Shown: positions 7,357-20,152 of the stretch, piece by piece
Position numbering within the stretch: position 1 is the stretch's first letter
How the letters are laid out: every line of letters begins with the position of its first letter
Assembly (NCBI GenBank): GCA_046758445.1
Contig: JBHIAE010000052.1
Coordinates: 1 to 20,152, forward strand
Length of the DNA: 20,152 bases
Reading direction: 5' to 3'
Source: Candidatus Thorarchaeota archaeon
GTDB lineage: Archaea > Asgardarchaeota > Thorarchaeia > Thorarchaeales > Thorarchaeaceae
Translations under genes and position numbers: made by a program
Notes under the pieces: generated by a model
Database searches by the model: none
Seen by the model: only the letters and a program-made list of their open reading frames with translations
Told to the model about the DNA's origin: nothing

Positions 7357-7638
7357 ATGGTCAAAATGCCTAAGATCAGTGTGACTGTTGAGAGGATTGA
7401 TGGACACTGCAACCTTCCAGTTTTGGTAGGCGACCACTTCTACGTTGAAGGCTCGAAGCTTTCTGTTCCTGAGGGAAACAATGTGTGCATCTGGGCCCTG
7501 CAGAGCATGATGCCGGTGTTCCCGGTTCTTAACGTGAAAGAAACCCTGCCTGAGGACCACTGGGTGAAGAGTGTGAAACACTTCACTTGTCCAGATCCAG
7601 AAGGAAAGGTCATCTTCAGGCTAGAAGTGTCTGAGTGA
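7357..7638 (+). CDS. TIGR04076-like small Cys-containing protein
   Basis: Pattern I.G.C....VGD.F, C.WAL..M.P and CPDP...V.F.L. Confidence 0.75.
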   Translation: MVKMPKISVTVERIDGHCNLPVLVGDHFYVEGSKLSVPEGNNVCIWALQSMMPVFPVLNVKETLPEDHWVKSVKHFTCPDPEGKVIFRLEVSE

Positions 7639-7677
7639 GTGTCAAGTTTTGCCATTACCCAGGCGTGGACTGTTCAG

Positions 7678-8196
7678 ATGATTCAAATCGACGTAAGCAA
7701 ATGCACGGGATGCAGAAGCTGTGAAACTGCATGTTCGTTCTTTCATTCAGGGAGAGTAAGCAATCACCTTGCTAGAATCAAAGTGATGCATCTCTATGAA
7801 ACAGGCATCGATGGGCCAGTCGTCTGCACGCAGTGTGAAGAGAGATACTGCTTGGAATGTCCAGTCAATGCGATCACTGTCGGGAGTCTTGGAGAAATCG
7901 TTGTCGCTCCGACAATCTGCAACCTATGTGGGTCATGTAAGAAGCAATGCCCAATTGGTGCCATCGACCAACACAACGACCTCATCTATGTCTGTGACCT
8001 GTGTGGTGGAAGACCGAAATGTGTTGACATGTGCACGGAGCAGGCCATTGTATTTGCAGTCCAGTCCAAAGAGAGAGGATCACTTGCCAGATTCAAAGAG
8101 TCAACACAGAAGATGAACACCAACGAGAAGAGGAGCTACTACATCGAGACGTTAGGGAGAGAGGTAAGGAAGACTTGGAGGGACGCCCATGGCTAG
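7678..8196 (+). CDS. 4Fe-4S dicluster ferredoxin-like subunit (four-cluster, AOR-associated)
   Basis: CTGCRSCETAC, CTQCEERYCLECP, CNLCGSCKKQCP and CDLC....KC...C motifs. ATG 7678 preferred over GTG 7639. Overlaps the AOR start by 8 nt. Confidence 0.9.
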   Translation: MIQIDVSKCTGCRSCETACSFFHSGRVSNHLARIKVMHLYETGIDGPVVCTQCEERYCLECPVNAITVGSLGEIVVAPTICNLCGSCKKQCPIGAIDQHNDLIYVCDLCGGRPKCVDMCTEQAIVFAVQSKERGSLARFKESTQKMNTNEKRSYYIETLGREVRKTWRDAHG

Positions 8197-9982
8197 TTTT
8201 GGGTATGGCGGTAGGATTCTCCGGGTTGACCTCGGTGAGAAACGCTTCAAGATAGAGAGAAGCAACGAGTCATGGTTCAGGAAAGTGGTTGGTGGTCGAG
8301 CAGCCAATACCAGGCGCCTTTACGAGGAGTTGAACCCTGACTGTGATCCTCTTGGCCCTGAGAATATCATCATATTCGGGGTTGGCCCTCTGACGGGTTC
8401 ACTTCTTCCTGCTTCGGCGTACTACACAGTAACAGCGAAATCTCCAATGACCGGCATTCTTGGAGACTCTGCAGCAGGGGGACAGTTTGCTGCTGAGATG
8501 AAGCTCACTGGTTTAGACCAGATAATCATCACAGGCGCGGCAGACAAGCTTACCTACTTGATGATCGAGAACGACAGTGTGGAGTTCAAAGAGTGTACAG
8601 AGCTGGCCGGGAGTAGCATTGTTGCAACCACAACTGCAATCAGAACGACTCAAAGAGACCATTCAATTGAAGTCGCTGCAATTGGGCCGGCCGGTGAGAA
8701 CCTTGTTCTCTTCTCAACCATTGTCTCAAGCGGAAATAGGGTAAACGGAAGAACAGGCATGGGTGCTGTGATGGGCTCGAAGAACCTGAAGGCTGTAGCC
8801 GTGAGGGGAACAGGCTCAGTTCAAGTAGCAGATCCCTTGACCTTCTTAGAAGAATCAACAATGATACGAAGAGCAATAGTGGAGCACAATGAGTACGACA
8901 AGCGATACCGAATGGGTACAACCATGCTCATGAATGATTTGAACGGAATAGGCATCCTTCCAACGAATCACTTCCAAGATGGCGTCTGTGATTATGTAGA
9001 CAAGATATCAGGGGAGCGACTAGCAGAAGACTACAAGGTGAAGAACAAAGCATGCTTCAACTGCAACCTTCACTGCTCACGATACTACATTGTTGGGAAG
9101 CAAGAGGGAGAAGGTCCCGAGTTCGAAACTCTATGCAGCTTCAGTTCGAGATTGGGGGTGTCTGACCTTCCCTTTGCATTGGAGATGAACACCTGGCTCA
9201 ATCAAATGGGGCTGGACTCAATCTCAACCTCCGAGGTAATTGGTTGGATTATCGAGTGCCAAGAGAAAGAGCTGATTACTCCTGCTGACTTAGAAGGACA
9301 CAGCATAACATGGGGAGAAGTCGACAAGATAAGAGATCTAGTCCATAAGATGACGTACCGCGATGAGATTGGTGATAGGCTGGCAGATGGTGCCACACGT
9401 CTCTCGAAGGGATTCAGTGAAGACGCCCAAAGACTAGTCATGCAAGTCAAAGGACTGGACATCATCTGCGGAGACCCCAGAGGTATCAAGGCATATGGCT
9501 TGACCTATGCGATAGCGTCCAGAGGAGCGGATCATCTAAGGGCTGAGCCATACTTTGAACTGACAAACCGTGTTGATGAAGCTAAGAGGCGATTCGGCAC
9601 AGAGAAAGCAGCTCTAAGAATGGAGGAAGAGGGAAAAGCGGCCCTAGTGACCTATTCTGAGAGAATTGCCTTATTAACTGACTCGATGACTATGTGTAAG
9701 AACATCGGGTTGTGCATGGACGTCTTGAACTTCGAAAACGCGGCCTCATTGCTCAGGGCAGGTACAGGCTACAACTACACTCCCAAGAAGCTGCAGAAGC
9801 TGATGGCAGATTCTGTAAATCTGCAACATGAGCTCAACCGTAGTTTCGGTATAACTAGGAAGGATGACACATTGCCAGACCGGTTTGTGAACGAACCGCT
9901 TGAAAGAGGCCCTACAAAAGGGTCAACCGTTGACATAGACAGAATGGTTGACGAATACTACGGGATTCATGAGTGGGATTAG
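8189..9982 (+). CDS. aor: Tungsten-dependent aldehyde:ferredoxin oxidoreductase family protein
   Basis: KSPMTG, IGPAGEN, GRTGMGAVMGSKNLKAV, CxxCxxxC (CFNCNLHC), EGPEFET, GLDSIS, RGADH and DDTLPDRF motifs. Confidence 0.93.
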   Translation: MASFGYGGRILRVDLGEKRFKIERSNESWFRKVVGGRAANTRRLYEELNPDCDPLGPENIIIFGVGPLTGSLLPASAYYTVTAKSPMTGILGDSAAGGQFAAEMKLTGLDQIIITGAADKLTYLMIENDSVEFKECTELAGSSIVATTTAIRTTQRDHSIEVAAIGPAGENLVLFSTIVSSGNRVNGRTGMGAVMGSKNLKAVAVRGTGSVQVADPLTFLEESTMIRRAIVEHNEYDKRYRMGTTMLMNDLNGIGILPTNHFQDGVCDYVDKISGERLAEDYKVKNKACFNCNLHCSRYYIVGKQEGEGPEFETLCSFSSRLGVSDLPFALEMNTWLNQMGLDSISTSEVIGWIIECQEKELITPADLEGHSITWGEVDKIRDLVHKMTYRDEIGDRLADGATRLSKGFSEDAQRLVMQVKGLDIICGDPRGIKAYGLTYAIASRGADHLRAEPYFELTNRVDEAKRRFGTEKAALRMEEEGKAALVTYSERIALLTDSMTMCKNIGLCMDVLNFENAASLLRAGTGYNYTPKKLQKLMADSVNLQHELNRSFGITRKDDTLPDRFVNEPLERGPTKGSTVDIDRMVDEYYGIHEWD

Positions 9983-10001
9983 CCGCATGCACTGACTGTG
10001 C

Positions 10002-10032
10002 GAGGGATTAGAAGGTTAACCATTACTTTTAG
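10002..10032. repeat. Putative attL
   Basis: GAGGGATTAGAAGGTTAAC (10002-10020) vs TAGGGTTTGAAGGGTTAAC (18248-18266). The inner arm AACCATTACTTTTAG is 12/15 identical to the reverse complement of 18240-18254. Confidence 0.6.
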
Positions 10033-10073
10033 CAGGGGGGTAAGTGTATGTGGGTTTACGCCCCCTATATTAC

Positions 10074-11489
10074 ATGTCCGTTTCTAGAAAACCCGCTTGG
10101 TATGAAAAAGATGAGTTTCTAGACCGTTGGGTTGGTTCTCGAACAGAATCCACCAAGAAACTTTACAGAAAGGCTTGGCGTAGGTGGATGAGCTTCCTAA
10201 CTACAAAAGAAGAATGGAATCCAACCCCTGAAGAAATCATAATTGAATACGAAGAGGATCTAAAGGTCCCAATCCGCCAAGGCGGTGGGGAAACAGGTAG
10301 AAGAATTGAACGCTTCTACAAGTGGCTTATTGAGGAATACATCAATCCTAGTGTTGATGGCGATGATGTTCATTTGTCACCCAGCAGTGCCAATACATAT
10401 TGTGGTGCGATAATGGGGTTCTATAGAATGAACACAGGGCAACGCGTACCATTTCAAAGACCTGTGCGTGAGGTCTTACCTAGAGGTAGAGTCGCTGATA
10501 ACGCCAAAATTGAGTTGGAACATCATCACATCCGAGGATTACTCGACGCAAGCAACTCCTTACGCGAGAAGGCATTCATCCTCTGCATGTATGAATTTGG
10601 CTCTGACTTGGACACCCTTCTGAAATTGGATGTCAAGCATATCGGTAACTATGACCTTGACTGGGCGACTATCACAACCACCAGAGGAAAGACCAGAGTT
10701 CAATACATTTCACATCTAGGTCCTAATGCTATGAGGGTACTGAGAACATACCTCTTGAAGCGGTTCAAGATTCGAGGGAAGATTGACTCTGTGACTAAGG
10801 CATTCAAGAGAGTTTCAAGTAAGTATAAGGGCAAAATGATGAAGGCTTGGAACCAACCCCTCTTTGTGATGAAATCAAGGGGTGGTTCTTGGAAACGTCT
10901 AACATCTGGAGCAATCAGGAAGGAGTTTAGTAGCATTAGGCGCACAGCTGGATTCGTTGATGAGGATCTACGCATCAAAGGAAGACAAAATTCGGTTGTC
11001 CTGTATTCATTGCGTTCAGCGTTTGAAACTCACTTAGCATTGGCTGGATGTCCAAAAGAGTTATACGACTTCTGGATGGGTCACAAGCTTCCCTATGAGG
11101 GTGCATATTTTAGAGTCAAGCAGACGAGTCTCAAAGAGTATCAACGATATTGGAAGCAAGCCCTAGACATTTACTCAGGCTTCGGAACTGATGTTGATGA
11201 GATGGTTCAAGAACGCCTTCGTGATGAATTGGCGAAGTACATCGGGTTTGCTCGTGTTGAAGATATTGAACGTGAAGCACGTATCATTGCTGCGGAAAGA
11301 CGAATGCACGAGAGTGGTGGTGGTAAGGCACGAATTGGTGAGTATGAACCCGAAATCATCATTGAACAGATTGAGAGTGGTAATCTAATAGATCCGTTGG
11401 ATGAACTTAACGAGGAAGAACTAACACAAGTGAAGTTTGAGGCGTGGCAAAGGATAGTCATGAGAAGTCTAACAGACAATCAGGAATGA
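10074..11489 (+). CDS. Tyrosine recombinase/integrase, non-canonical active site
   Basis: N-terminal SAM-like region (T..LY...W..W..FL; SANTY...I..FY). Catalytic-domain pattern LREKAFIL.MY..GSD..TLL.L, RGKT, YSLR..F.T.L, FWMGH, YEGAY. ATG 10074 preferred over GTG 10044. Confidence 0.88.
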   Translation: MSVSRKPAWYEKDEFLDRWVGSRTESTKKLYRKAWRRWMSFLTTKEEWNPTPEEIIIEYEEDLKVPIRQGGGETGRRIERFYKWLIEEYINPSVDGDDVHLSPSSANTYCGAIMGFYRMNTGQRVPFQRPVREVLPRGRVADNAKIELEHHHIRGLLDASNSLREKAFILCMYEFGSDLDTLLKLDVKHIGNYDLDWATITTTRGKTRVQYISHLGPNAMRVLRTYLLKRFKIRGKIDSVTKAFKRVSSKYKGKMMKAWNQPLFVMKSRGGSWKRLTSGAIRKEFSSIRRTAGFVDEDLRIKGRQNSVVLYSLRSAFETHLALAGCPKELYDFWMGHKLPYEGAYFRVKQTSLKEYQRYWKQALDIYSGFGTDVDEMVQERLRDELAKYIGFARVEDIEREARIIAAERRMHESGGGKARIGEYEPEIIIEQIESGNLIDPLDELNEEELTQVKFEAWQRIVMRSLTDNQE

Positions 11490-11491
11490 GT

Positions 11492-11509
11492 GAAGGGAGC
11501 AATCCCTTC
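11492..11509 (+). terminator. Stem-loop directly after integrase stop
   Basis: GAAGGGA-GCAA-TCCCTTC: perfect 7-bp stem with a GNRA loop, starting 3 nt after TGA. Confidence 0.5.
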
Positions 11510-11577
11510 TCAAACTATAATTCCATGAGAAGTCTATGGATTACCGTTAGAGTTATACCTGAAGGATTTTTGAGAGG

Positions 11578-11588
11578 TTTTTATTAAT
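11578..11588 (+). promoter_or_regulatory. Putative TATA box for ORF 11609
   Basis: TTTTTATTAAT about 25 nt upstream of ATG 11609. Confidence 0.5.
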
Positions 11589-11608
11589 GGTCATAACAAG
11601 TTAATCCA

Positions 11609-12007
11609 ATGGTTGTAGGCAGAATGAAAAAAGAGCTTCCTGTCAAGGATGGGGTTAGGTACACATTTGTTGGTTTCTATGATTCATATTTCTGGGATGA
11701 GATTAACCTTAGAGATAGAGTAGTGAAACAGAAAAAACTGCTGTTTACGAGTATCAAGCTTCAAAACGGAACTTTGGTAAAGGATGAGTATTGGTTTGAC
11801 TCTTCTAAACAATTTGAAGATCTAGGAGAATTGAAGAAGGGGGACATCATTCAATTTAATGCACGAGTTAAGATATTTTTGACTGGTTATGAAAGTCAAT
11901 ATTCATGCGATCCTGGAACTGATGAGTGGCGGATTGAATATGAAGATAAACGTGAATTGGATTTCAAGTTGCTGAACCCCTCCAAAGTCAAGAGAATATC
12001 TAACTGA
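11609..12007 (+). CDS. Conserved hypothetical, probable OB-fold protein of mobile elements
   Basis: Pattern R..F.G.. / LL...I / DxxWF / L..GD.I.F.ARVK....GY / DFKL..P.KV recalls a widespread uncharacterised phage/MGE family (recognised from memory, not searched). Confidence 0.65.
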   Translation: MVVGRMKKELPVKDGVRYTFVGFYDSYFWDEINLRDRVVKQKKLLFTSIKLQNGTLVKDEYWFDSSKQFEDLGELKKGDIIQFNARVKIFLTGYESQYSCDPGTDEWRIEYEDKRELDFKLLNPSKVKRISN

Positions 12008-12056
12008 TTCTCCCTTAGATGGCAGACCTTAAATTCATTCACGAGAAGTGCTTCCT

Positions 12057-12320
12057 ATGAAGAAGAACTGGGCTTTTCCTAGAGGTAAAAACTTCTTTGC
12101 CTTTGGGTGGGGCAAGCGTGGTCCTTACGCAGTTGTAACTAGGCGAATAGGACGTAGGACCTACGCAAAAGCATCCATTGGCGCTCTTGGACCCAGAGTA
12201 GGTGGCAAATACTCTGGTAGAAGAGCATCTGCTGAAGGAAGGATAAATCTCTCAACCGGGAAACCATCATTCTCTTTCAAGAGGAAACGTAGTTCCTCAC
12301 GTCGAAGAAGGCGTAGATAA
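12057..12320 (+). CDS. Small highly basic Gly/Arg-rich protein with C-terminal poly-Arg
   Basis: 87 aa with 27 Lys/Arg and one acidic residue. CTTAAAT TATA-like box about 25 nt upstream of ATG 12057. Confidence 0.65.
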   Translation: MKKNWAFPRGKNFFAFGWGKRGPYAVVTRRIGRRTYAKASIGALGPRVGGKYSGRRASAEGRINLSTGKPSFSFKRKRSSSRRRRRR

Positions 12321-12412
12321 AAGATTCCTGCTGGAGTCAGAGAATGGAAAAACAGAGGATTCCATTTGCCTTTGCTTTGTTTTGCATGAACGTCCAAACA
12401 TTGATGGGCTTT

Positions 12413-12688
12413 TCAGAGACCAAGTGCTACAATCTCAGAGCTTAGGGTTGTTCCTGCACCAACCGAGAGAAGCGTGAAGCCTACGACATTGCCACTGACA
12501 TCAACGTGATTGATATCACCAACTGAGGTCTTTGGGTCTGTAGAAGTCACTTTGACATTCAGTACTGCTTGGATGTTCTGTAGATCCGCAATAGTCACCT
12601 GAATGTAGACCGTTCCCGAAGCCACAACTGAACTATCAGACTGCTTTGAGATGGTTGAACCATCTTTGAGAGTTCCAACGACTGTCAC
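12413..12688 (-). CDS. Small all-beta protein, possible virion decoration/spike protein
   Basis: 91 aa rich in V/T/S/G with alternating beta-strand pattern. GTG start overlaps the upstream stop (GTGA) and is preceded by GGGTGA. Confidence 0.7.
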   Translation of the reverse strand: MTVVGTLKDGSTISKQSDSSVVASGTVYIQVTIADLQNIQAVLNVKVTSTDPKTSVGDINHVDVSGNVVGFTLLSVGAGTTLSSEIVALGL

Positions 12689-13238
12689 CTAATCACCCTC
12701 TGGATGGTCCTTCGTGGGATGGCAGCAATGTTTCTAGCAAACTGGACGGCTTGGTCAAGCACCTGAAATCCTGTTTGCCTGTAGATGTCCACAGGAGGGG
12801 GATAACTCCCAGACCTTCTCCTTGTCCTCACAGGGCTAGGTGCTGAGAATGTATGCCCAGTTGGGTCACTGAAGGCTAACCTTGTGGTTGCTGAAGGATC
12901 TACCCCGCCACTAGCTCGTCTATGAGAACCTCGGTCAGATGCCCTTGTCTTCTCAAAGTAGTGTTGAGGACGAAGGAATGACCGTGTACCTCCGCTAAGA
13001 ACTCCAATCACACTTGGGATGTCTCCGATTGTTGTCCCCTTGGGATAGCTCCTAGGGGAGATTCCATGAACACTTCCACTTGATGGAACGTTCGGTCTTC
13101 TCGATTGTGATGTTCTTCCATGTCGTGCCTCAGTCAGACCTTCGAAAACCTGAATGCTAGCATGTAACGGCCATGCTACAGACTCAAGCCTTCTAGTTCT
13201 GCTACTACGTCTTGGAGGACGTCCATAGAGATTCCCAT
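12685..13238 (-). pseudogene. Arg/Ser/Pro-rich basic protein (~184 aa) with frameshift right after the start codon
   Basis: AGGTGA SD then ATG at 13238. The frame of the 108-aa track ORF is stop-free from 13251 to its stop at 12685. Adding one G to ATGGG gives MGNLYGRPPRRSSRTRRLES... Confidence 0.65.
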
Positions 13239-13243
13239 CTCTA

Positions 13244-13786
13244 TCACCTAGTCACACTACTGTAGCCCCTGTGCTTTCTCAATCGTTTCTTCTCTGCCTC
13301 ACGTCTCTGTCTGTTTGCTTTGATTCGTTCTGCTGCCTGTTTCATCTCTTGTTCCTTAATCTCCTCCTCAGTAGGTGGAGCAGGGGGTGGCGGAGTGAAT
13401 CTCTCTCGGAATGAAGTGAGTATTCCGAAGCCTTTGAATGGTCCACCCCCTGCGGTTGGTATCGAATGAGTCGCTCTCCTTTCCAGAGCTTGGTCAAAGG
13501 CTGAGCCTTGAGAAGATGAGTAGGTTTCTGAAGCATGAGTGGTCTGTGGTTCTGGATTGGGCTGAGGCTGTCCAGACTGAGGTTTGACTAGTGGAGTTGC
13601 CTCCGTGAGCTTCTCTAGTGGTTTCTGTTCAGACATCTGTTCCTTGATTCGTCGCCTGACTGGAACAGGATCTACTCCAGCACGAATCCGAATGTTCCCT
13701 GTGACGGCATCGACAATGGCAAACAGTGCTGAGACTCTTCGGTTCAATTCATTGGGATTGAACTGTTTCTGCTTCCTAGCCATCAT
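13244..13786 (-). CDS. Hypothetical Pro/Gln-rich protein with basic C-terminal coiled coil
   Basis: 180-aa ORF with ATGA overlap to the upstream gene, GGAGGT SD, PPPPAPP segment and charged helix. Confidence 0.75.
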   Translation of the reverse strand: MMARKQKQFNPNELNRRVSALFAIVDAVTGNIRIRAGVDPVPVRRRIKEQMSEQKPLEKLTEATPLVKPQSGQPQPNPEPQTTHASETYSSSQGSAFDQALERRATHSIPTAGGGPFKGFGILTSFRERFTPPPPAPPTEEEIKEQEMKQAAERIKANRQRREAEKKRLRKHRGYSSVTR

Positions 13787-14961
13787 TCAACCTCCTGTTC
13801 TGGTGGCTCACCATAGGTCATGAATTCCCCAGCACCTAATCGCTCTAGCTCCTCCGACATCAACCGCGTACTCTCCCGAATATCATCAATTGAAGACGGG
13901 GTCGGAGGTGCAGATCCTGCATCATAAACTGCTTGTGCACCCTGAAGTAGCCAATCCTTCACTGCTTTTGTAGACGACCTTACATCCCTGAAGGTATCAA
14001 TCATCTCACCCTCAACCTGCTCAGACCATGTTCTGTCCCTTTGACGAGTTTCAAGGTCACGTATCTTATCCTCAAGTGGTCTGACTGTCTCGTCCATCCA
14101 AATCCTGCGTTCCAACTTCTCTTCCAATCTGTCAATTCTTCGTTGAAGCTTCTCATTTTCAAGCTCCAACTCACGCTCTCGTTCTGAATCATCATACGAA
14201 CCTTCGGGTTCAATGATAGCCTTCATCTCTTTGAAGGTCTGAATCATCTCACGCATCTGGCTGGCTGGATTGTCCTGTTGATAGCGTCCACCAAACTCAC
14301 CACGTCCGGGTCTAGACGGGGTCCGTCGAGTGGGACCAGTCCATGTTTGCTTACTTCTGTAGATCCGGTCCTCAAGGTCATAGGGCACTTCCAGCCCTCT
14401 TTTGGCTACCCAATCTTGAAGGAACATTCGCTGACTAGTGGGATTCCAACTAACCACCATTTCCTCAGCCAACTCAATGAAGTCCCATAGGTTGTCTAGG
14501 TCAAGCTCTCTGGTCTTGAACATGTGAACAAATCGCGAGGCATCTCGTTTGGGCATATCCCAATAAATCAACAATCTCTCCAACTTCTCATAGACATCAG
14601 GTGCCTCAGGTGTCGGTTCTCGTCTGGGGCGGTGTCTTGGTCTCTCCACTGGTTCATCCATTTCCTCCCATTCATTCTCATCCTCTTCATCGGTGAGGTC
14701 AATCTCATCATCTAGGTGGGTTGGTGCCTCCATTGATTCCACCATTTCTTGTACATCAGTTTCAACAATAGGTTCAGGCTCATCGAATGGGTGTGGAATT
14801 ACCGTGTCATCTTCTATGGTGCTAAATGGGTGTTCCACCATTGCTCCATCTGACTTACCCTTACAGAATCTTTGGTGCGTATTTAGTGCCCGTTTGTTCT
14901 TCCATGGCTTTCCATGTCTGTCCGCTGTTGCACCACAATGTATGCATGCAAGTTCAGTCAT
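13783..14961 (-). CDS. Hypothetical protein: N-terminal Zn finger, acidic linker, helical domain, coiled coil
   Basis: CIHC-x18-HQRFC (C2HC finger), D/E-rich residues ~50-105, heptad region ERERELELENEKLQRRIDRLEEKL, AGGTGGTG SD upstream. Confidence 0.85.
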   Translation of the reverse strand: MTELACIHCGATADRHGKPWKNKRALNTHQRFCKGKSDGAMVEHPFSTIEDDTVIPHPFDEPEPIVETDVQEMVESMEAPTHLDDEIDLTDEEDENEWEEMDEPVERPRHRPRREPTPEAPDVYEKLERLLIYWDMPKRDASRFVHMFKTRELDLDNLWDFIELAEEMVVSWNPTSQRMFLQDWVAKRGLEVPYDLEDRIYRSKQTWTGPTRRTPSRPGRGEFGGRYQQDNPASQMREMIQTFKEMKAIIEPEGSYDDSERERELELENEKLQRRIDRLEEKLERRIWMDETVRPLEDKIRDLETRQRDRTWSEQVEGEMIDTFRDVRSSTKAVKDWLLQGAQAVYDAGSAPPTPSSIDDIRESTRLMSEELERLGAGEFMTYGEPPEQEVE

Positions 14962-14972
14962 AGTCCATTACA

Positions 14973-15023
14973 CCACCTAGTGTCCACCTAGTGGACATTC
15001 CATTATGCATAATGGTCAATATT
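14973..15023. promoter_or_regulatory. Palindrome/direct-repeat cluster (operator or origin-like)
   Basis: CCACCTAGTG twice (14973, 14984), TGTCCAC-CTA-GTGGACA (14981-14997), and perfect 16-bp palindrome CCATTATGCATAATGG (15000-15015). Confidence 0.55.
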
Positions 15024-15053
15024 AGATCCCCACCCCCGAGGGCATGGGTACTT

Positions 15054-15320
15054 CTACCATTCAAATCCATTAATCCTCCTTTGGGATTCTTCCATTGTTC
15101 TGAATAAATACACCATATAGGATACACATGGCTTCTTAGTTGTCCGTATGGTTAATGATTCCTCTTCTTTGGCGAGTTCACCAATAGCTTTGGCAAGAAT
15201 CAGCCTTTCACGTTCTGCGTCTAGCCACTCCTTCAACACTATGAGATAGGATTGTGATTTGACCAATCTTCTACCAATAGCATCCAACAAAGGTGGTAGT
15301 GGTGGATACATAGCACTCAT
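15054..15320 (-). CDS. Hypothetical protein (88 aa)
   Basis: AGGTGA SD immediately upstream of ATG 15320, directly following the stop of the upstream gene. Confidence 0.65.
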   Translation of the reverse strand: MSAMYPPLPPLLDAIGRRLVKSQSYLIVLKEWLDAERERLILAKAIGELAKEEESLTIRTTKKPCVSYMVYLFRTMEESQRRINGFEW

Positions 15321-15330
15321 CTTGTTCACC

Positions 15331-15642
15331 TCATGGTGCGGGAAGGATTGCCTGTGGTTCAATCTCAAACACTCTCAATACATTCTCATCTGTGTCAAAC
15401 TTGACCTCTAGAACCCGTGGAAGGACTGCACGAAGCTCAATAGTACTCTTGCCTGAGATCCTAGTAACGCTGACATCCCAGAGCTCTACTGCTGTAAGCC
15501 CAGTTCATGTCTTGACCTCATCACCAAACCTTGTGCTTAAGGTCGCTCTAACTGTTGAGCCTGAGTTCACAACTTCAATCACTCCACCAAGATACCGTTC
15601 CTGCTCGTAATCATCATTTTGTCCGAAGAACCTTCTCAGCAC
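15331..15642 (-). pseudogene. Beta-rich hypothetical protein (103 codons) interrupted by an in-frame TGA
   Basis: AAGGAGG SD, then GTG 15642 overlapping the wHTH stop. MLRRFFGQ...GDEVKT*TGLTAVELW...ILPAP*. TGA at 15507-15505 (codon 46). The gene fills the gap between its neighbours. Confidence 0.7.
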
Positions 15643-15947
15643 AGATTTGCCTCCTTGACCAGAACCCCTTTTGGCTTCAGCTTGAACACTCGCCCTCGCT
15701 TTGGGTCATCAAACCTGTCAATCATTTGAAAGCTAAACAGCTTCTCAACCCCCTTCTTCCTGACCGTTACTGGGCTGAGTCCTGTTGCCTCTGCAATCTC
15801 ATTAATTGTCATTCCTCTCTGAGGCTTCTGAGCCAGTGCTAGAAGTGTACGACTTGCAGATCCTGAACTCAAGATTCGTTTGATAATTGGCTCTTTCCTG
15901 ATGACAATAGGTTCGGCCATAGTAGAACTAACTAGTTCCTCCCACAT
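15636..15947 (-). CDS. Winged helix-turn-helix DNA-binding protein
   Basis: LLAL...GMTINEIAEATGLSPVTVRK....L....I.R...RGRVFKL..KG is a typical wHTH pattern. The start may be ATG 15920. Confidence 0.85.
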   Translation of the reverse strand: MWEELVSSTMAEPIVIRKEPIIKRILSSGSASRTLLALAQKPQRGMTINEIAEATGLSPVTVRKKGVEKLFSFQMIDRFDDPKRGRVFKLKPKGVLVKEANLC

Positions 15948-16167
15948 GTATCCTAAAGTCGGTCTAGCAAAAAAAGGAATGCACCAGCCCTGCGGAGTGT
16001 AACAGAGTCAGTGCAAAGAGCTATAACTGACGTCCAGTCGTCACACTTGGGTTGAGTAGTGTAAGGTGGTTGAGATGTATCAATCATTCGTTAGGAAGAA
16101 GGAAGCTCTGAGGGTGGTAATGGTCTAGATTTAGAAATAGACCCCTCAGAGCTAGGAGCCCAGTACA

Positions 16168-16342
16168 ATGAGCCTCCAAATTAACTACGAACCAAAGCCA
16201 TATTTGTCTAAGCTTCGTAGTGAAAGTGGTAATTGAGGATGAGCGACCCGAGGGTGTCCGTGTTCTCATGCTAGAGAAGTGGGTCATCAAGGGTGATGCG
16301 CCAAGGAAGGTTCGCATCAGTATTGAGCCTGTTGAGGACTAG
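16168..16342 (+). pseudogene. Small (~58 aa) protein split by a frameshift near 16220
   Basis: AGGAG SD and ATG 16168 give MSLQINYEPKPYLSKLRS. The +1 frame continues VKVVIEDERPEGVRVLMLEKWVIKGDAPRKVRISIEPVED* and has no ATG upstream of this segment. Confidence 0.5.
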
Positions 16343-16348
16343 ATCTAC

Positions 16349-16384
16349 GGTGGGGTGGATAGACCCACCCACCACTCTTCTTTC
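16349..16384 (+). terminator. GC-rich hairpin plus pyrimidine tract between convergent genes
   Basis: GGTGGGGTGG-ATAGAC-CCACCCACC (one bulge) followed by ACTCTTCTTTC. Confidence 0.55.
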
Positions 16385-16426
16385 ACTGAATTCCGAATTT
16401 ATTAATGAAGAATAAGCACTCTAAGA

Positions 16427-17938
16427 TTAAGCTCGGTCTGGAGTAGGATTTGGGAACCATGCTCGAAACATAGCACCCTGCTCTGGTTCTCCATATACTC
16501 TGTCATGCAAACTGAGTCTTCCCCCATATTTGGACAGTATCTGTTTTGCTTGGTGAATACCAACTCCACCATATCTGCGGGTTGGGTCGAGTAAGCTAAT
16601 TTTCCTATCATTTGGGATACCTGGACCGTTGTCTGCAATTGTAACCTCATATCCCCCAGCCACTTTCACCAACTCCACCCAGATTTGTTTGTTCATTCTA
16701 TTATTATGAATGACTGCATTTTCTAAGAGGTTCGTGAGCAGAATCTCCAAATACTGGTCAGCTATGACAATTTCTCGGTGAACATCGCATTTCATAAAAA
16801 CCTGAACATCAGGGAATTCATTTCTTAGGACTTCCAACGATTCCTTCAGAGCAACTTCTAAGGACCTCTCGAAGAACGGTGCAGAATACAAGCCACGAGT
16901 AGCCTGAATCTTCCTGATTACTTCTTTAGAACTGTGTACAGACTCAACTATAAGACCAAAGACAGGGTCAATTTCAGGACCTAAATCAAAGTGTCCAAGT
17001 ATCTCTGTCCCCAAGACAATTGCTTGTAGATGGTTTCGTATATCGTGACTTATGAGGTCCAAATAAAAAATCGCTTGCTCGCCAGCAACCGTTGCTGCTC
17101 TTTCTGCGTTCTTGCGTTCAGTGATGTCCTCTATGGCAAGAAGAATCATCTGTGTCTTGTTCTTTTCCCTGTAGATCCTTCTTGCGTTCAGCAGCATGAA
17201 CTTTGCACCGATGTTCTCGAAGACATGCTCCATCTCGAAGTCACGCATCTCAGTGTTCAATGGCAGGATCTCCTCGAGAAGCGCTCTGAGCCGAGGGATG
17301 TCCCACTGTCTTTCCCCAAGGTCGTAGAGTGATTTTCCCTCGGTCTCCTCCTTAGTCATATTGAAGCTCTGATAGAACGAGCGATTGGCTGAGATCACCC
17401 TGATGTCTGCATCCATGACAAGAAGGGGCTCTCGGATTGTTTCCACGATGGCTTCGGCATACTCTCTTGCGGCCCGCTCCTCTCTTTCTGCGTTCTTGCG
17501 TTCAGTGATGTCCTCTATGGCAAGAAGAATCATCTGTGTCTTGTTCTTTTCCCTGTAGATCCTTCTTGCGTTCAGCAGCATGAACTTTGCACCGATGTTC
17601 TCGAAGACATGCTCCATCTCGAAGTCACGCATCTCAGTGTTCAATGGCAGGATCTCCTCGAGAAGCGCTCTGAGCCGAGGGATGTCCCACTGTCTTTCCC
17701 CAAGGTCGTAGAGTGATTTTCCCTCGGTCTCCTCCTTAGTCATATTGAAGCTCTGATAGAACGAGCGATTGGCTGAGATCACCCTGATGTCTGCATCCAT
17801 GACAAGAAGGGGCTCTCGGATTGTTTCCGCGATGGCTTCGGCATATTCTTCCCTCAATATATTCAAACCTTTAGTTATATGTTGAAAGCTCCTCTGTAAA
17901 TTATTCTGATGACTTATTTGTTTTTTTATCCAAACCAT
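16427..17938 (-). CDS. Cytoplasmic PAS-PAS sensor histidine kinase
   Basis: Two PAS domains (ETIREPLLVMD...ANRSFY...IEDITERK), H-box LISHDIRNHLQ, N-box NLLENAVIHN, G1 DNGPGI and G2 GGVGI. Confidence 0.92.
   Translation of the reverse strand: MVWIKKQISHQNNLQRSFQHITKGLNILREEYAEAIAETIREPLLVMDADIRVISANRSFYQSFNMTKEETEGKSLYDLGERQWDIPRLRALLEEILPLNTEMRDFEMEHVFENIGAKFMLLNARRIYREKNKTQMILLAIEDITERKNAEREERAAREYAEAIVETIREPLLVMDADIRVISANRSFYQSFNMTKEETEGKSLYDLGERQWDIPRLRALLEEILPLNTEMRDFEMEHVFENIGAKFMLLNARRIYREKNKTQMILLAIEDITERKNAERAATVAGEQAIFYLDLISHDIRNHLQAIVLGTEILGHFDLGPEIDPVFGLIVESVHSSKEVIRKIQATRGLYSAPFFERSLEVALKESLEVLRNEFPDVQVFMKCDVHREIVIADQYLEILLTNLLENAVIHNNRMNKQIWVELVKVAGGYEVTIADNGPGIPNDRKISLLDPTRRYGGVGIHQAKQILSKYGGRLSLHDRVYGEPEQGAMFRAWFPNPTPDRA
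17098..17845. repeat. Tandem duplication of PAS-coding DNA (2 x 364 bp, period 384 bp)
   Basis: 17098-17461 vs 17482-17845; by eye the only mismatch is 17445 A vs 17829 G (Val vs Ala). Confidence 0.95.
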
Positions 17939-18239
17939 CTTCCCTACTTCAATTCAGCCAAAGGATAGCAAAGAGGTTCTGTTTGGAATAGACAGTCCAA
18001 GAGAATGTCATTGGGATAAGCCAACATATGTATGATTCAAAGAAGGGGCCTTGAGCGTTTACCTCTTTCTTTCTTTGATTCATTATTTCACACGCTAGAG
18101 AAACTTGGGAATAACTGTCAGAAGTAAATGACTAATGCCGAAAAGGCAGTGATTTGTAAACTACATTTAATGTTTCAAAAAAAGGTTCCCGGTTAGAAAC
18201 AGATTCATTCCAGTGTACTGCCTTAAAGAGGGTTAATAA

Positions 18240-18266
18240 CCAAAAGTTAGGGTTTGAAGGGTTAAC
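18240..18266. repeat. Putative attR
   Basis: CCAAAAGTTAGGGTT arm, TGAAGGGTT, then AAC. Lies where the AT-rich tract gives way to host-like composition. Confidence 0.6.
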
Positions 18267-18310
18267 TTGGTAGCCATCCAGAAGGTACCTACTTGGGTCG
18301 AAGGACAAGT

Positions 18311-19591
18311 TCAGCGAATTGGAATGGAGATGCGAAATAGATCTTGGCCTGTGTCCGAATCAACAGTAAGTTCAATCGTGCCTCCGTACGACTCTACGAT
18401 TCTATATGAGAGATACAACCCAAGTCCTTTACCTTCGCCGCCACTGCTGACACCCTTTTGAAAGATGCGTGGTCTGACAGACTCAGGTATGCCGGGACCT
18501 GTGTCTCTGTACTCGATTTCTAGGGTATCCTCTTTCATCCAAACGCAGACTTTGGCAACAGAGTCTAGTCCTGCATACTCTGCAGTATTCCTCAATAGAT
18601 TCTCGATGACCAACGGGAGTAGAATCCCTACTCTAATCCTGGAAGACACAACACTTGGCCAAACTTTCACCTCGACCTTCATCCCTTTGAATACCTTTTC
18701 GGTATTCGCGGCGATTTCATTGAGTGTGAGGAGAAAGTCATACTCTCTTTGTCGTCCGACCGACGCAAATAGTTTGATGACACTTCCCATCCTGTCACTG
18801 ACAGCCAGAGCTGTTTCGATATTCTGTTGGTGTTTGGCATCCACATCTTCCAAGACATCAAGAAGTTCGACAGACCCCCTAAGGATTTGCATGTCGTTTC
18901 CCAGGTCATGAGTAAGAACTGATGTGTGCACTTCTAGCTCCCTTTGCCGTTGTTCTAGGTCTTCTTGACGATATCTCAATTGGGTCACATAGTAGTTCGT
19001 GATCCAAGTGAAGAGCAAGACAACGATGGAGAGAGCAGCTTGGTCGAAGATGGGCTCAAGGGCCACAATGAATTCTATGCCCTGATGTAGGTATGTATAG
19101 ACTAGGAGCAAGGATGCTTCGACTGCGATGAAACAGCCCATTTGTCGAGTAGTCAGCCATTGGCTTCCAATCAAGGCAGCAACAAGAGGCCAGATTAGAA
19201 TGTTGAACACAATTCTGGTTGGTGCCCATTGTTGGCTATATGATAGGAATAGAAATGGCATCGAAGCCAAACCGAGCGTTGTAAAGATCCCTGCAAGAAG
19301 TACATGTCTCGTTCGACTAAGGGAGTAGATTCCAACTGAAAGAAGCATCAAAGCCAAGTAGACAGGTTGTCCATCCACTGCACTTCCGAGTAACAGTTGA
19401 AGGAAGGGAAGGATGAGTATCAACAGAATGAGCACGGCAGAAAGGAATCTCGCCTTCACCCTAAGTGTATCATCCGTGATATCATCTGAAGGCCGGGTGA
19501 GGATTTGATCTACCCTTCGAACCATGCTTGCTGGGTTATCTCCCAATTGCGAATCATGTGGATTCTCGCTATCCATTATGACATCTTCCAT
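18311..19591 (-). CDS. Membrane-bound sensor histidine kinase (multi-TM input domain)
   Basis: About 6-7 TM helices, coiled coil, H-box LTHDLGNDMQ, N-box ENLLRNTAEY, G1 DTGPGI, F-box IFQKG and G2 GKGLGLY. Confidence 0.92.
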   Translation of the reverse strand: MEDVIMDSENPHDSQLGDNPASMVRRVDQILTRPSDDITDDTLRVKARFLSAVLILLILILPFLQLLLGSAVDGQPVYLALMLLSVGIYSLSRTRHVLLAGIFTTLGLASMPFLFLSYSQQWAPTRIVFNILIWPLVAALIGSQWLTTRQMGCFIAVEASLLLVYTYLHQGIEFIVALEPIFDQAALSIVVLLFTWITNYYVTQLRYRQEDLEQRQRELEVHTSVLTHDLGNDMQILRGSVELLDVLEDVDAKHQQNIETALAVSDRMGSVIKLFASVGRQREYDFLLTLNEIAANTEKVFKGMKVEVKVWPSVVSSRIRVGILLPLVIENLLRNTAEYAGLDSVAKVCVWMKEDTLEIEYRDTGPGIPESVRPRIFQKGVSSGGEGKGLGLYLSYRIVESYGGTIELTVDSDTGQDLFRISIPIR

Positions 19592-19725
19592 TCTACTTGG
19601 ACCAGAATCCTGCTCTAGGTTGAGTCTAAGTCCGTCGACTGTGTTATATTCATTCCTCGGCTAGAGTCAATCAGTTGGAAGGCTTTATACCTCGGGAACC
19701 ATGTGGGTTGGCCGGGGAATGATTC

Positions 19726-20152
19726 ATGGTATTAGATGTCGTAGAGCTCCGGAAGAACTTCGATGGTCCCCATCACTTACTCGTTGCATCTGACGGCCTG
19801 ACTCTGTTCATGTGGAAATGGGAACCACGTACAGAGCATTCAAGGAAATCGGCCCTGTTACTCCTGCATGGACTTACCGCATATTGTGGAGCCTATTCCA
19901 TGATGACCGAGCCGCTTGCAGAACGTGGCTTCACTATCTATGGTCTAGACCTCAGGGGGCACGGACTGTCAGATGGGAATAGAGGTGACTGTCCCAGCAA
20001 AGAACGACTTGTTAAGGACATCTGCGAAGCCATAGACTTCGTGAAAGAACGACATGAGACCGTAGTCTTGCTGGCTCACAGTCTGGGTGTGCTATCGTCC
20101 ATATATGCCATGAATCATTGCCTACAGAACCTGGGCGGGGCCATTCTCCTGA
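19726..20152 (+). CDS. Alpha/beta hydrolase (lysophospholipase/monoglyceride lipase-like), 3' end beyond window
   Basis: Not in the ORF track. Manual translation: MVLDVVELRK...LLLHG...DLRGHGLSDG.RG...LLAHSLG (nucleophile elbow). Open to the window end. Confidence 0.9.
   Translation, partial: MVLDVVELRKNFDGPHHLLVASDGLTLFMWKWEPRTEHSRKSALLLLHGLTAYCGAYSMMTEPLAERGFTIYGLDLRGHGLSDGNRGDCPSKERLVKDICEAIDFVKERHETVVLLAHSLGVLSSIYAMNHCLQNLGGAILL

Follow-up and report, generated by a model that had tools for sequence, protein, structure and literature searches.

A probable reduced, non-autonomous copy of a rare integrative element family in a Thorarchaeota genome

The stretch of DNA analysed here, 20,152 nt from a Thorarchaeota genome (the window), holds an exactly delimited insertion between two convergent host genes, aor and a membrane histidine kinase gene. 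The insert is a mobile element, and we consider it probable that it is a cryptic, reduced, non-autonomous and decaying copy of a rare integrative family. Such reduction or decay is suggested by two broken genes of the conserved core and by the host DNA captured in the right arm. The family as a whole looks like a set of 10–12-kb virus- or plasmid-like integrative elements, of which the window copy appears to be a cut-down member.

An insertion between aor and a histidine kinase gene

Comparison with related genomes gave the limits of the element. The window is colinear with contig C342 of the closest same-genus genome (G007, ~85% nucleotide identity) at 7594–10020 and 18250–20152, with nothing in G007 between the two aligned blocks, which overlap by 17 nt in its coordinates. 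The window insert is thus 8,246 bp long (10021–18266) and has an imperfect 17-bp direct repeat at both sides, ending in GGTTAAC (10014–10020 and 18260–18266); the empty site of G007 corresponds to the left half of attL joined to the right half of attR. The two att copies agree at 13 of 17 positions when ungapped, or in 15 of 18 columns once two gaps of 1 nt are allowed, and the GGTTAAC 7-mer by itself is non-significant (at least three occurrences in 16 of 100 shuffles). In two more genomes of the genus (G006 and G012), aor and the membrane kinase gene are likewise convergent neighbours, ~46–48 bp apart; a different gene follows aor in four others. GC content is 0.455 in the element, compared with 0.486 and 0.478 in its flanks.

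This alignment demonstrates the insertion and its exact ends: a precise, att-bounded insert with an empty counterpart in relatives, as in a site-specific integrated element. The locus accordingly offers both attL and attR, together with an unoccupied attB in a sister species. A preliminary description of the window had proposed an integrative element with a tyrosine recombinase, lying between convergent aor and membrane kinase genes at an intergenic, non-tRNA target, and had suggested looking for an empty site in related genomes. These points hold: a PF00589/phrog_1 gene sits at the left edge, the target is the spacer between convergent host genes, no tRNA gene was found anywhere in the window, and G007 has the empty site. 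The features at the ends of the element are as follows.

10004–10020, plus strand: attL core, the left-hand imperfect direct repeat with GGTTAAC at its end; 10020 is the exact last position homologous to the empty site of G007
10044–11489, plus strand: tyrosine recombinase of 481 aa, with its start at 10050 or 10188 in other gene calls; Pfam PF00589, 1.3e-7; phrog_1
17939–18249, no strand: non-coding right arm (GC 0.38) carrying a pair of exact AGGGTTAA copies at a distance of 29 bp
18250–18266, plus strand: attR core, the right-hand imperfect direct repeat, again with GGTTAAC at its end; G007 homology restarts at 18250

The two AGGGTTAA copies, at 18229 and 18258 (the latter within attR), are the only exact ones in the window and may be integrase-binding sites. 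We infer that the element entered the aor/histidine-kinase spacer of a Thorarchaeota lineage when the tyrosine recombinase joined its attP to a chromosomal attB of ~17–18 bp, and that the crossover would have fallen inside ...GAAGG(G)TTAAC. Exact-protein look-ups brought up no alternative contigs that might show an excised circular form or an attP junction.

The integrase gene, of the Phage_integrase family, begins 24 nt inside the left end. Alignment to XerA (4A8E) and within its clade showed that Lys, Arg II and His III are present and a candidate Tyr is aligned, while the Arg I position is occupied by Asp and the His II position by Tyr. An Arg stands two residues before the catalytic Lys (K-2), as it does in all 16 of the Arg I-less relatives examined compared with 2 of ~20 with a canonical Arg I, and the Arg I-less trait runs through an Asgard-wide set of integrases. 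This K-2 Arg may be the counterpart of the alternative arginine of IntDOT, the CTnDOT integrase. In the IntDOT subgroup of tyrosine recombinases, the usual position of the first catalytic arginine lacks that residue, and a different, downstream arginine is conserved instead (PMC8138268). By alignment, the window integrase may follow a similar pattern, with Arg I gone and a putative alternative arginine at K-2; IntDOT, however, is bacterial and belongs to Bacteroides conjugative transposons, whereas the enzyme here is archaeal and Asgard. It is therefore a candidate for testing a relocated, IntDOT-like catalytic arginine in archaea.

A small family of related elements

Exhaustive protein searches recovered ~10 related loci, from genomes of Thorarchaeota as well as from sediment metagenomes. 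Relatives of the 392-aa and 91-aa proteins lie in syntenic order at L036/L037, L038/L039, L040, L042/L043 and L052. The common core comprises an HTH regulator, a ~100-aa all-beta protein, a Zn-finger/coiled-coil protein, a disordered basic protein, a 91-aa beta-sandwich and a tyrosine integrase; a wider, co-oriented module adds a small helical protein and an Arg/Pro-rich protein, with the integrase convergent to it. Amino acid identity across the module is 40–85%. The genes of the window copy between the integrase and the right arm are listed here.

11609–12007, plus strand: 132-aa orphan situated where the GC content of the element is lowest (0.40); probably cargo
12057–12320, plus strand: strongly basic protein of 87 aa that ends in an Arg-rich tail; also conserved in four further Thorarchaeota genera
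12413–12688, minus strand: core gene, 91-aa seven-strand beta-sandwich (family alignment A2; AF2 pLDDT 87.5)
12685–13242, minus strand: core gene remnant, a 186-codon open frame that has lost its start (translation and raw sequence)
13244–13786, minus strand: core gene, 180 aa, Pro/Gln-rich with a basic helical C-terminus; homologues in related loci
13783–14961, minus strand: core gene, 392 aa, with an N-terminal Zn finger, acidic linker, helical domain and coiled coil; syntenic homologues
15054–15368, minus strand: core gene, helical protein of about 88–104 aa; 33% identity (E 1e-5) to a 121-aa protein of L036
15340–15642, minus strand: broken core gene encoding an all-beta protein of ~100 aa; TGA in frame at 15507–15505
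15636–15947, minus strand: HTH/winged-helix regulator of 103 aa, whose gene opens the minus-strand core module; weak Pfam HTH matches; phrog_1368

Syntenic homologues of all five core proteins identify the window copy, by sequence, as a member of this family. The regulator shares 47% identity with a 91-aa protein of L036. A search of 1.84 billion representative proteins gave no more than 5 relatives of the 392-aa protein, which has syntenic homologues in L036 (41%), L038 and L040; homologues of the 180-aa protein occur in L036 (46%), L038 (35%) and L042 (60%, C-terminus). The L036 protein related to the helical gene in turn matches a 116-aa protein of L038 (51%). The 91-aa beta-sandwich is present in one or more copies per family member, including tandem paralogues. 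Its predicted structure resembles the receptor-binding foot seen in tail fibres of pyocins and phages (best match 6cxb: Z 9.0, rmsd 2.5 Å, 89 of 91 residues). The family of this protein occurs in 5 of 400 Asgard genomes, a patchy distribution as expected for a mobile element. A relative of the ~100-aa all-beta protein was also predicted to fold (pLDDT 84.6), with no clear match for that fold in the PDB (best Z 3.7).

The fuller relatives L040 and L052 (~11 and at least 12 kb) carry a D5-type primase-helicase (D5_N/DUF5906), and three relatives encode an S24/S26-type peptidase. Host-type genes adjoin L038 and L040 (Roadblock, Sec23 and SMC in the latter), each with an integrase at its edge. L042, whose 91-aa protein is 85% identical to that of the window, is a distinct element from the same sequencing run, SRR29324603. 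The family is apparently rare, unnamed and mostly confined to Thorarchaeota; the window anchors it as a small gene-sharing group missing from every virus collection searched, and the two core proteins queried with tblastn had no match among 50,697 phage and virus records. Complete relatives could be retrieved from sediment metagenomes with the 91-aa and 392-aa proteins as markers.

Outside the core, the 132-aa orphan had no Pfam or PHROG match and was not found in related elements. The 87-aa gene has DNA matches of 67–74% with a third-codon-position substitution pattern (52–60% amino acid identity), and its homologues in the four other genera lie in unrelated contexts with no integrase or element-family gene nearby.

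Reduction of the window copy

Two core genes carry lesions. In the all-beta gene, the TGA occupies a Trp codon conserved in four relatives (alignment A5). In the 186-codon frame, which is homologous to a 153-aa protein of L042 (56% over 145 aa), ATG, GTG and TTG are all missing before 13011; an ATG at 13238–13236 is one base out of frame and adjoins a GGG run, so the start was probably lost by a 1-nt deletion. By eye, this frame also has an IGDIP motif in common with a 212-aa protein of L036. Both lesions are identical in the independent per-run Logan assembly of SRR29324603. The evidence comes from assemblies of probably one sample, and a homopolymer error or strain variant may be the source of the lesions.

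The right arm is of host origin, as shown by its nucleotide identity to another region of the host genome (G000).

16237–17938, minus strand: captured host-type DNA, comprising a kinase, its downstream spacer and the start of the next host gene; 69% nucleotide identity to contig C50 of G000 over 16237–17128
17098–17781, no strand: perfect tandem duplication with a period of 384 nt, at least 300 nt identical, doubling one PAS domain of the kinase

This ~1.7 kb makes up about one-fifth of the element. The kinase (PAS-PAS-HisKA-HATPase, 16427–17938) has 18 paralogues in the host, the best at 44% amino acid identity. Beyond its stop, 16237–16317 covers ~27 codons from the start of the host gene that follows, and the N-terminus of a 77-aa ORF matches the ORF downstream of the host kinase paralogue. 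The copy number of the 384-nt repeat is that of the window assembly, as the Logan contig L126 stops at 17127, the repeat edge. The genes of the block had been described as mostly orphans; the host-type kinase within it, and the relatives that the orphans have elsewhere, run against that view.

As the preliminary description reported, no Rep, capsid, terminase or packaging gene was detected in the element by Pfam or PHROGs. We likewise found no D5_N/DUF5906 primase-helicase (ORFs and Pfam, 10021–18266), no conjugation genes, no Holliday-junction resolvase and no transmembrane segment in any plausible ORF of the element. Capsid, packaging and conjugation genes are unrecognisable in every family member. 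L040 and L052 do have a replication gene, and its lack appears to be particular to the window copy. In those two relatives the helicase lies beside the core module, beyond the regulator, where the window has the kinase fragment. Loss of the primase-helicase, with host DNA carrying a PAS histidine kinase taking the place of the replication module, and inactivation of two core genes by a nonsense codon and a start loss would then account for the present copy. A natural helicase-less sub-lineage is possible, since the L036 and L042 contigs stop short of the expected replication-gene position, and the absence of the peptidase need not be a loss, because L036 also appears to lack it.

More tentatively, the family could consist of undescribed temperate Thorarchaeota viruses with unrecognisable capsids. 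Small beta proteins, the 91-aa protein among them, would be virion or host-recognition parts, and the window copy would be satellite-like or recently disabled, its replication module swapped for a host sensor kinase. We regard this reading as possible but doubtful.

The main rival to the decaying-copy reading is a functional helper-dependent satellite, with its own integrase, regulator and some virion-related genes, to which a full-length relative supplies replication and/or packaging. The copy retains an intact integrase ORF, both att repeats, an intact regulator and four intact core genes, and for this reason it could still move or depend on a helper. The replication gene missing here is present in relatives, and a related but distinct element, L042, was in the same run. 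However, two conserved core genes are broken, and the captured host fragment stops within a gene and looks accidental. No specific hijacking gene was identified, and the 92.7% complete G000 yielded neither a second 91-aa family copy nor a D5-like gene (L052 protein as query). We regard a functional satellite as unlikely.

Less probable still is a complete minimal virus or integrative plasmid replicated by host machinery, with unrecognisable structural or transfer proteins. Small archaeal viruses without replication genes of their own exist, and verdandiviruses are said to depend on the host for replication (10.64898/2026.08.12.739948). The conservation of the core module fits such an element, and the fibre-foot-like fold suggests a possible virion or surface function. 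Against it stand a nonsense codon and a startless frame in family-conserved genes, the primase-helicase of relatives on longer contigs, and the host gene fragment that fills a fifth of the element. A virus with unrecognisable structural proteins is possible for the family as a whole.

The preliminary description had also raised a tyrosine-recombinase transposon. Such an element, aloposon-like or Tn916/CTnDOT-like, would move among many sites. The active-site layout similar to IntDOT-type enzymes and the non-tRNA target agree with this idea, but the genome holds one copy only, att copies alike over ~17 bp are what site-specific integration typically shows, and conjugation genes and the aloposon-defining features (below) are absent, making it very improbable. 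Finally, an ancestral block deleted in relatives is scarcely credible: the empty arrangement is seen in three relatives only and another gene follows aor in four, but precise deletions at a repeat matching the block ends would be needed, an integrase borders the block, modules homologous to it are present elsewhere, at different loci and in further genera, and GC content falls below that of both flanks.

Comparison with known elements

Aloposons are defined by tandem giant genes (3,000–6,000 aa), tRNA integration and a MinD/ParA-like ATPase module (Wu et al. 2022, PMC8813620). The comparison suggested earlier rejects that assignment: the largest ORF of the block has 503 aa, the window contains no tRNA gene, and no ParA/MinD match was found by Pfam. 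Hallmarks of verdandi-, skuld- and wyrdviruses (HK97 capsid and terminase; DJR capsid and packaging ATPase; small hydrophobic spindle-virus capsid) gave no Pfam or PHROG match, structure prediction having covered two proteins.

The Thorarchaeia elements 7H_11 and 8H_18 (Medvedeva et al., bioRxiv 10.1101/2021.07.29.453957), 8,776-bp circles, are likewise Thorarchaeia-associated, of similar size, refractory to annotation and without a recognisable capsid protein. By description they differ: both are CRISPR-targeted circles, 8H_18 encodes Topo mini-A and 7H_11 is nearly identical to it, whereas no Topo mini-A was detected in the window (Pfam, PHROGs).

Also comparable are the Atabeyarchaeia elements (Yucahu-i, 11 ORFs; 7.8–12 kb integrated; Valentin-Alvarado et al. 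2024, PMC11529989), which share an Asgard host, similar size, a tyrosine integrase, a short non-tRNA att motif, HTH proteins and mostly unannotatable genes. The SF3 helicase of Yucahu-i resembles the D5-type (SF3) primase-helicase of L040 and L052, which the window copy lacks. A Zn-finger/coiled-coil and fibre-foot-like core is unmentioned for the Atabeyarchaeia elements and sets the present family apart by description. The preliminary description had inferred a new small element class; ~10 related loci, and the fact that 8–12-kb integrase-bearing Asgard elements (PMC11529989) and intergenic targets were already reported, together with the probable reduction of the window copy, speak against this.

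Archaea are already known to harbour reduced elements that carry an integrase and no hallmark gene, and no new class is opened here. Cryptic integrated elements (CIE) were defined for Thaumarchaeota as multigene elements with an integrase and att sites but no viral or plasmid hallmark (PMC6563490), and 15 of 68 integrated elements in Thaumarchaeota have an intergenic target (Krupovic et al. 2019, PMC6563490). The window element corresponds to this definition, having an integrase, att sites and multiple genes with no viral, conjugative or plasmid hallmark, and it resembles CIE in being att-bounded, hallmark-less and intergenic, as CIE often are, and under the 20 kb that most of them do not reach. 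Whereas CIE are elements of Thaumarchaeota, the one described here resides in an Asgard archaeon of the Thorarchaeota and belongs to a small family of its own with a recognisable conserved core.

Delimitation of the insertion

The host genome (3.25 Mb, 92.7% complete) carries the element on C52, a 20,152-bp contig that the window covers in full, and its nearest named relatives, judged by the aor gene, are MAGs of 'Candidatus Thorarchaeota' and 'Promethearchaeota'. The genes on either side of the element are ordinary chromosomal ones.

Features of the window (window positions)
Left flank: methyltransferase, TrmO, DinB, AsnC-type regulator, NosD-like beta-helix protein and ferredoxin genes
8189-9982, left flank: aldehyde:ferredoxin oxidoreductase (aor)
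10004-10020: attL, from the side-by-side reading with G007
10044-11489, plus: tyrosine recombinase, 481 aa (Pfam PF00589 at 1.3e-7; phrog_1)
Between integrase and 87-aa gene, plus: orphan, 132 aa
12057-12320, plus: highly basic Arg-rich protein, 87 aa
15947 down to 12413, minus: run of seven frames, listed next in order
Start of the run, minus: HTH regulator
15642-15340, minus: ~100-aa beta protein
Next, minus: small helical protein
Next, minus: 392-aa protein (Zn finger, acidic linker, helical domain, coiled coil)
Next, minus: 180-aa Pro/Gln-rich basic protein
Between 180-aa and 91-aa genes, minus: Arg/Pro-rich frame
Last of the run, minus: 91-aa beta protein
Right of the regulator: ~290 bp without any match
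16427-17938, beyond that stretch: PAS-PAS-HisKA-HATPase kinase, 503 aa
From this kinase to attR: AT-rich non-coding DNA, 328 bp
18250-18266: attR, from the side-by-side reading with G007
18311-19591, minus, right flank: four-TM histidine kinase

The preliminary description had taken this block for an insertion ending at GGTTAAC, a motif found at 10014 and 18260 that, as a 7-mer, is not significant (at least three matches in 16/100 shuffles). Comparison with G007, a genome of the same genus, bears the proposal out and supplies the empty site. A 4,962-bp contig of G007 aligns with window 7594-10020 at 85.1% nucleotide identity and with 18250-20152 at 84.9%; the alignments break at 10020 and 18250, share 17 nt on the G007 side and leave no sequence between them. 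The G007 site consists of the left part of attL and the right part of attR, as expected if attB and attP crossed over within ...GAAGG(G)TTAAC. In two further same-genus genomes (G006 and G012), aor and the membrane kinase gene are convergent neighbours ~46-48 bp apart, the kinases sharing 64-66% amino acid identity. Neighbouring aor and kinase genes are thus the ancestral arrangement, and the block of 8,246 bp (10021-18266) was inserted; the insertion is real and its ends are exactly defined.

GC content is 0.455 in the block and 0.486 and 0.478 in the flanks. No tRNA gene lies in the window, in keeping with the earlier suggestion that the target is not a tRNA. No flanking repeat of greater length turned up when the block was searched for repeats, and Rfam reported no RNA family for 9500-18800. 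Promoter and terminator scans returned results at chance level, and neither aor nor the flanking kinase had an alternative contig in exact look-ups. At the right end, AGGGTTAA occurs in two exact copies 29 bp apart (18229-18236 and 18258-18265), the sole two in the window; the second falls inside attR, and the pair may be integrase-binding repeats.

Gene content and related loci

The plausible ORFs of the window element encode no transmembrane segments. Word-based homology searches with the 392-aa protein and the integrase gave self-matches only. Exhaustive HMMER searching of 1.84 billion representative proteins recovered five relatives of the 392-aa protein, among them P0004, which matches through the Zn finger alone and sits among host genes, and P0005, which lies on a 1.9-kb contig. 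For the 91-aa protein, six other clusters were found among 5.8 billion. The contigs of these relatives, together with genome matches from the profile search, make up our set of syntenic loci; 'core' denotes the minus-strand genes of the window element from the HTH regulator to the 91-aa protein.

Related loci
L036/L037: 6.6-kb metagenome contig; core, then 214-aa protein, then convergent integrase
L038/L039: metagenome contigs; core as in L036/L037, two 91-aa paralogues, integrase, then host-type genes
L040: 41-kb contig; integrase, D5_N/DUF5906 primase-helicase and core, ~11 kb
L042/L043: closest in part; unrelated integrase, UDG-like gene, non-matching Zn-finger protein
L052: 12.4-kb contig of G049 (another genus, same family); S24/S26-like peptidase, 214-aa protein, beta protein, 91-aa protein, regulator, primase-helicase, integrase

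L036/L037 matches the window in the regulator (47% amino acid identity), helical protein (33%), Zn-finger protein (41%), basic protein (46%), 91-aa protein (54%) and beta protein (52-58% over both window halves), and also has the Arg/Pro-rich protein. L042/L043 shares a 91-aa protein identical at 85% of amino acids and 74% of nucleotides and an Arg/Pro-rich protein at 56%, and the L052 and L040 primase-helicases are 34% identical. These differing gene sets and identities mark the family as mosaic. Roadblock/LC7, Sec23-like and SMC genes follow the L040 element, which places it in an Asgard chromosome. Relatives of the 392-aa, 91-aa and other core proteins in syntenic loci overturn the initial view that the genes are mostly orphans.

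The family is rare. Its 91-aa protein occurs in 5/400 Asgard genomes, four from the window's own family and one from another. IMG/VR gave no match to single-protein pattern scans for the 392-aa protein and integrase or to the 91-aa family profile, and neither the 392-aa nor the 91-aa protein had a tblastn match among 50,697 records of phages and viruses. A metagenome-contig scan with a closer 91-aa alignment yielded no confirmed locus, the ESM Atlas gave sub-threshold leads only for the 392-aa protein, and element DNA had no CRISPR-spacer-like short high-identity matches in 86 same-family genomes.

Several side observations accompany these loci. Run SRR29324603 contains both the window's element (Logan contig L126, 100% identical) and the distinct mosaic relative L042/L043, so two lineages of the family co-occur in one community. 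L042 2155-2526, L040 10370-10837 and L052 218-709 each encode a small peptidase of S24/S26 type whose serine motif is GDSMKPT-like; a signal- or LexA-type peptidase is unusual for so small an element, and it may process structural proteins. The 87-aa Arg-rich protein has relatives at 52-60% amino acid identity in four other Thorarchaeota genera (L023 9303-9503; L024 9826-10047; L025 726-950; L026 1909-2130), in unrelated neighbourhoods without an integrase; its gene in G060 is apparently frameshifted.

Integrase active site and state of the window copy

In an alignment with XerA (4A8E) and relatives, the catalytic Lys, Arg II, His III and a Tyr are conserved in the window integrase; Arg I is replaced by Asp and His II by Tyr. 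We assembled ~36 usable sequences from a profile search of 400 Asgard genomes and from family members at other loci (window 10044-11489; L096-L125). Integrases without Arg I, mostly with Asp, are Asgard-wide and span many families. In 16/16 of them an Arg precedes the catalytic Lys by two residues, as it does in 2 of ~20 with a canonical Arg I; because the sequences are related, these counts are descriptive and carry no statistical test. Decay of the integrase as the source of the Asp was dropped, since 16 integrases from many Asgard families show the same substitution and the co-varying Arg. Arg I is kept in canonical tyrosine recombinases (PMC5861418), the known exception being the IntCTnDOT subgroup, with a substitute arginine further downstream (PMC8138268). 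The Asgard Arg I-less integrases resemble IntCTnDOT in their apparently relocated arginine. From the co-varying Arg and this precedent, we infer that the window integrase is probably active, with an IntDOT-like active-site layout.

We think that the window copy as a whole is reduced and decaying, in view of its lack of a replication gene, a nonsense codon, a lost start and captured host DNA. A primase-helicase adjoins the core module in L040 and L052; the window holds no replication gene, and the L052 primase-helicase found no match in the host genome. The ~100-aa beta gene is interrupted by a TGA (15507-15505) in place of a Trp that is conserved in four relatives. The Arg/Pro-rich frame comprises 186 open codons beginning at the base after the preceding stop, is homologous to a 153-aa protein of L042 (56% over 145 aa) and shares an IGDIP motif, recognized by eye, with a 212-aa protein of L036. 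Its first ATG, GTG or TTG comes only at codon 78, downstream of this motif. A GGG run is immediately preceded by an ATG (13238-13236) that is off frame by a single base; an extra G would restore a start followed by residues seen in relatives, so that loss of the start by a 1-nt deletion is the simplest explanation. Both lesions and the attL junction are the same in an independent per-run assembly of SRR29324603 (8,648 bp, 100% identity), a run that is probably of the same sample as the MAG.

The captured DNA is found shortly past the regulator, where the core module ends; this is the place at which L040 and L052 have their replication genes, beside the module. Window 16237-17128 shares 69% DNA identity with a kinase locus on host contig C50; the similarity passes the kinase stop and the spacer and ends after ~27 codons of the next ORF. 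The host encodes 18 paralogues of the kinase. The captured DNA is thus a piece of the host genome whose second gene is cut short, an outcome expected of illegitimate recombination.

The evidence on the other side is that most core genes remain intact, as do the integrase frame and both att repeats, and that the L036 and L042 contigs end before the expected helicase position. The missing S24/S26 peptidase, once counted as a deletion, was given less weight: none is seen in L036 either, so its absence from the window is not evidence of loss. Weighing both sides, we regard the window copy as probably defective.

Two further observations concern the kinase loci. One PAS domain of the captured kinase is doubled by a perfect tandem duplication with a 384-nt period (17098-17397 and 17482-17781). 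An independent Logan contig stops exactly at the repeat edge, so the duplication is either very recent or an assembly ambiguity. Downstream of the C50 paralogue (L058, 2600-3600), overlapping ORFs in different frames have a common repeated '...LVRTD..GN..W' motif and look like one repeat-protein gene broken by frameshifts.

Core proteins and comparison with known elements

The 91-aa protein was modelled as a seven-strand beta-sandwich (pLDDT 87.5). In structure it comes closest to the R1 pyocin tail fibre, at the C-terminal foot that binds the receptor (6cxb; Z 9.0, rmsd 2.5 A, 89/91 residues), the next family scoring two Z units lower; the R2 pyocin fibre, the phage AP22 fibre, tailspike C-domains and H-type lectins follow. 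Foldseek gave weak tail-fibre matches of the same kind, and the exhaustive aligner was clearer. Together with tandem 91-aa paralogues in relatives, the modelled fibre-foot match suggests that the protein acts at a surface or in host recognition, though similarity of fold is no proof of function. On some metagenome contigs the family forms arrays of two to four tandem paralogues after a ~270-aa protein (L044 3714-5832; L055; L056 2816-4275). Those of L044 and L055 adjoin glycosyltransferase and methyltransferase clusters, the L044 cluster being intein-containing; this position hints at a link with cell-surface glycans. The ~100-aa beta protein, modelled from the intact L036 version (pLDDT 84.6), does not convincingly resemble any PDB or viral structure (best Z 3.7; best BFVD E 7e-3).

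The preliminary description had envisaged a new class of compact element. That reading is rejected in view of the relatives and of a known archaeal element kind that fits: the window element is a new member of a rare Thorarchaeota element family within that kind. The family has apparently not been described before, and it merits follow-up more than the window copy does. Unlike aloposons, which have tandem genes for 3,000-6,000 aa, tRNA targets and a ParA/MinD module (PMC8813620), the window element has none of these features. Capsid proteins of HK97, DJR or spindle type define the described Asgard virus groups (10.1101/2021.07.29.453957); none was detected in the element, so that membership in these groups is unproven, though not excluded. 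The Thorarchaeia-linked circles 7H_11 and 8H_18 (8.8 kb) are close in size and comparably opaque, but 8H_18 encodes Topo mini-A and none is seen in the window element. The element fits best among the archaeal 'cryptic integrated elements', which have an integrase and att sites, lack hallmark genes and are mostly smaller than 20 kb; 15/68 of them occupy intergenic targets (PMC6563490). Among Asgard archaea, the nearest comparison is with Atabeyarchaeia integrative elements of 7.8-12 kb such as Yucahu-i, which combine a tyrosine integrase, HTH proteins, an SF3 helicase and a short att motif (PMC11529989).
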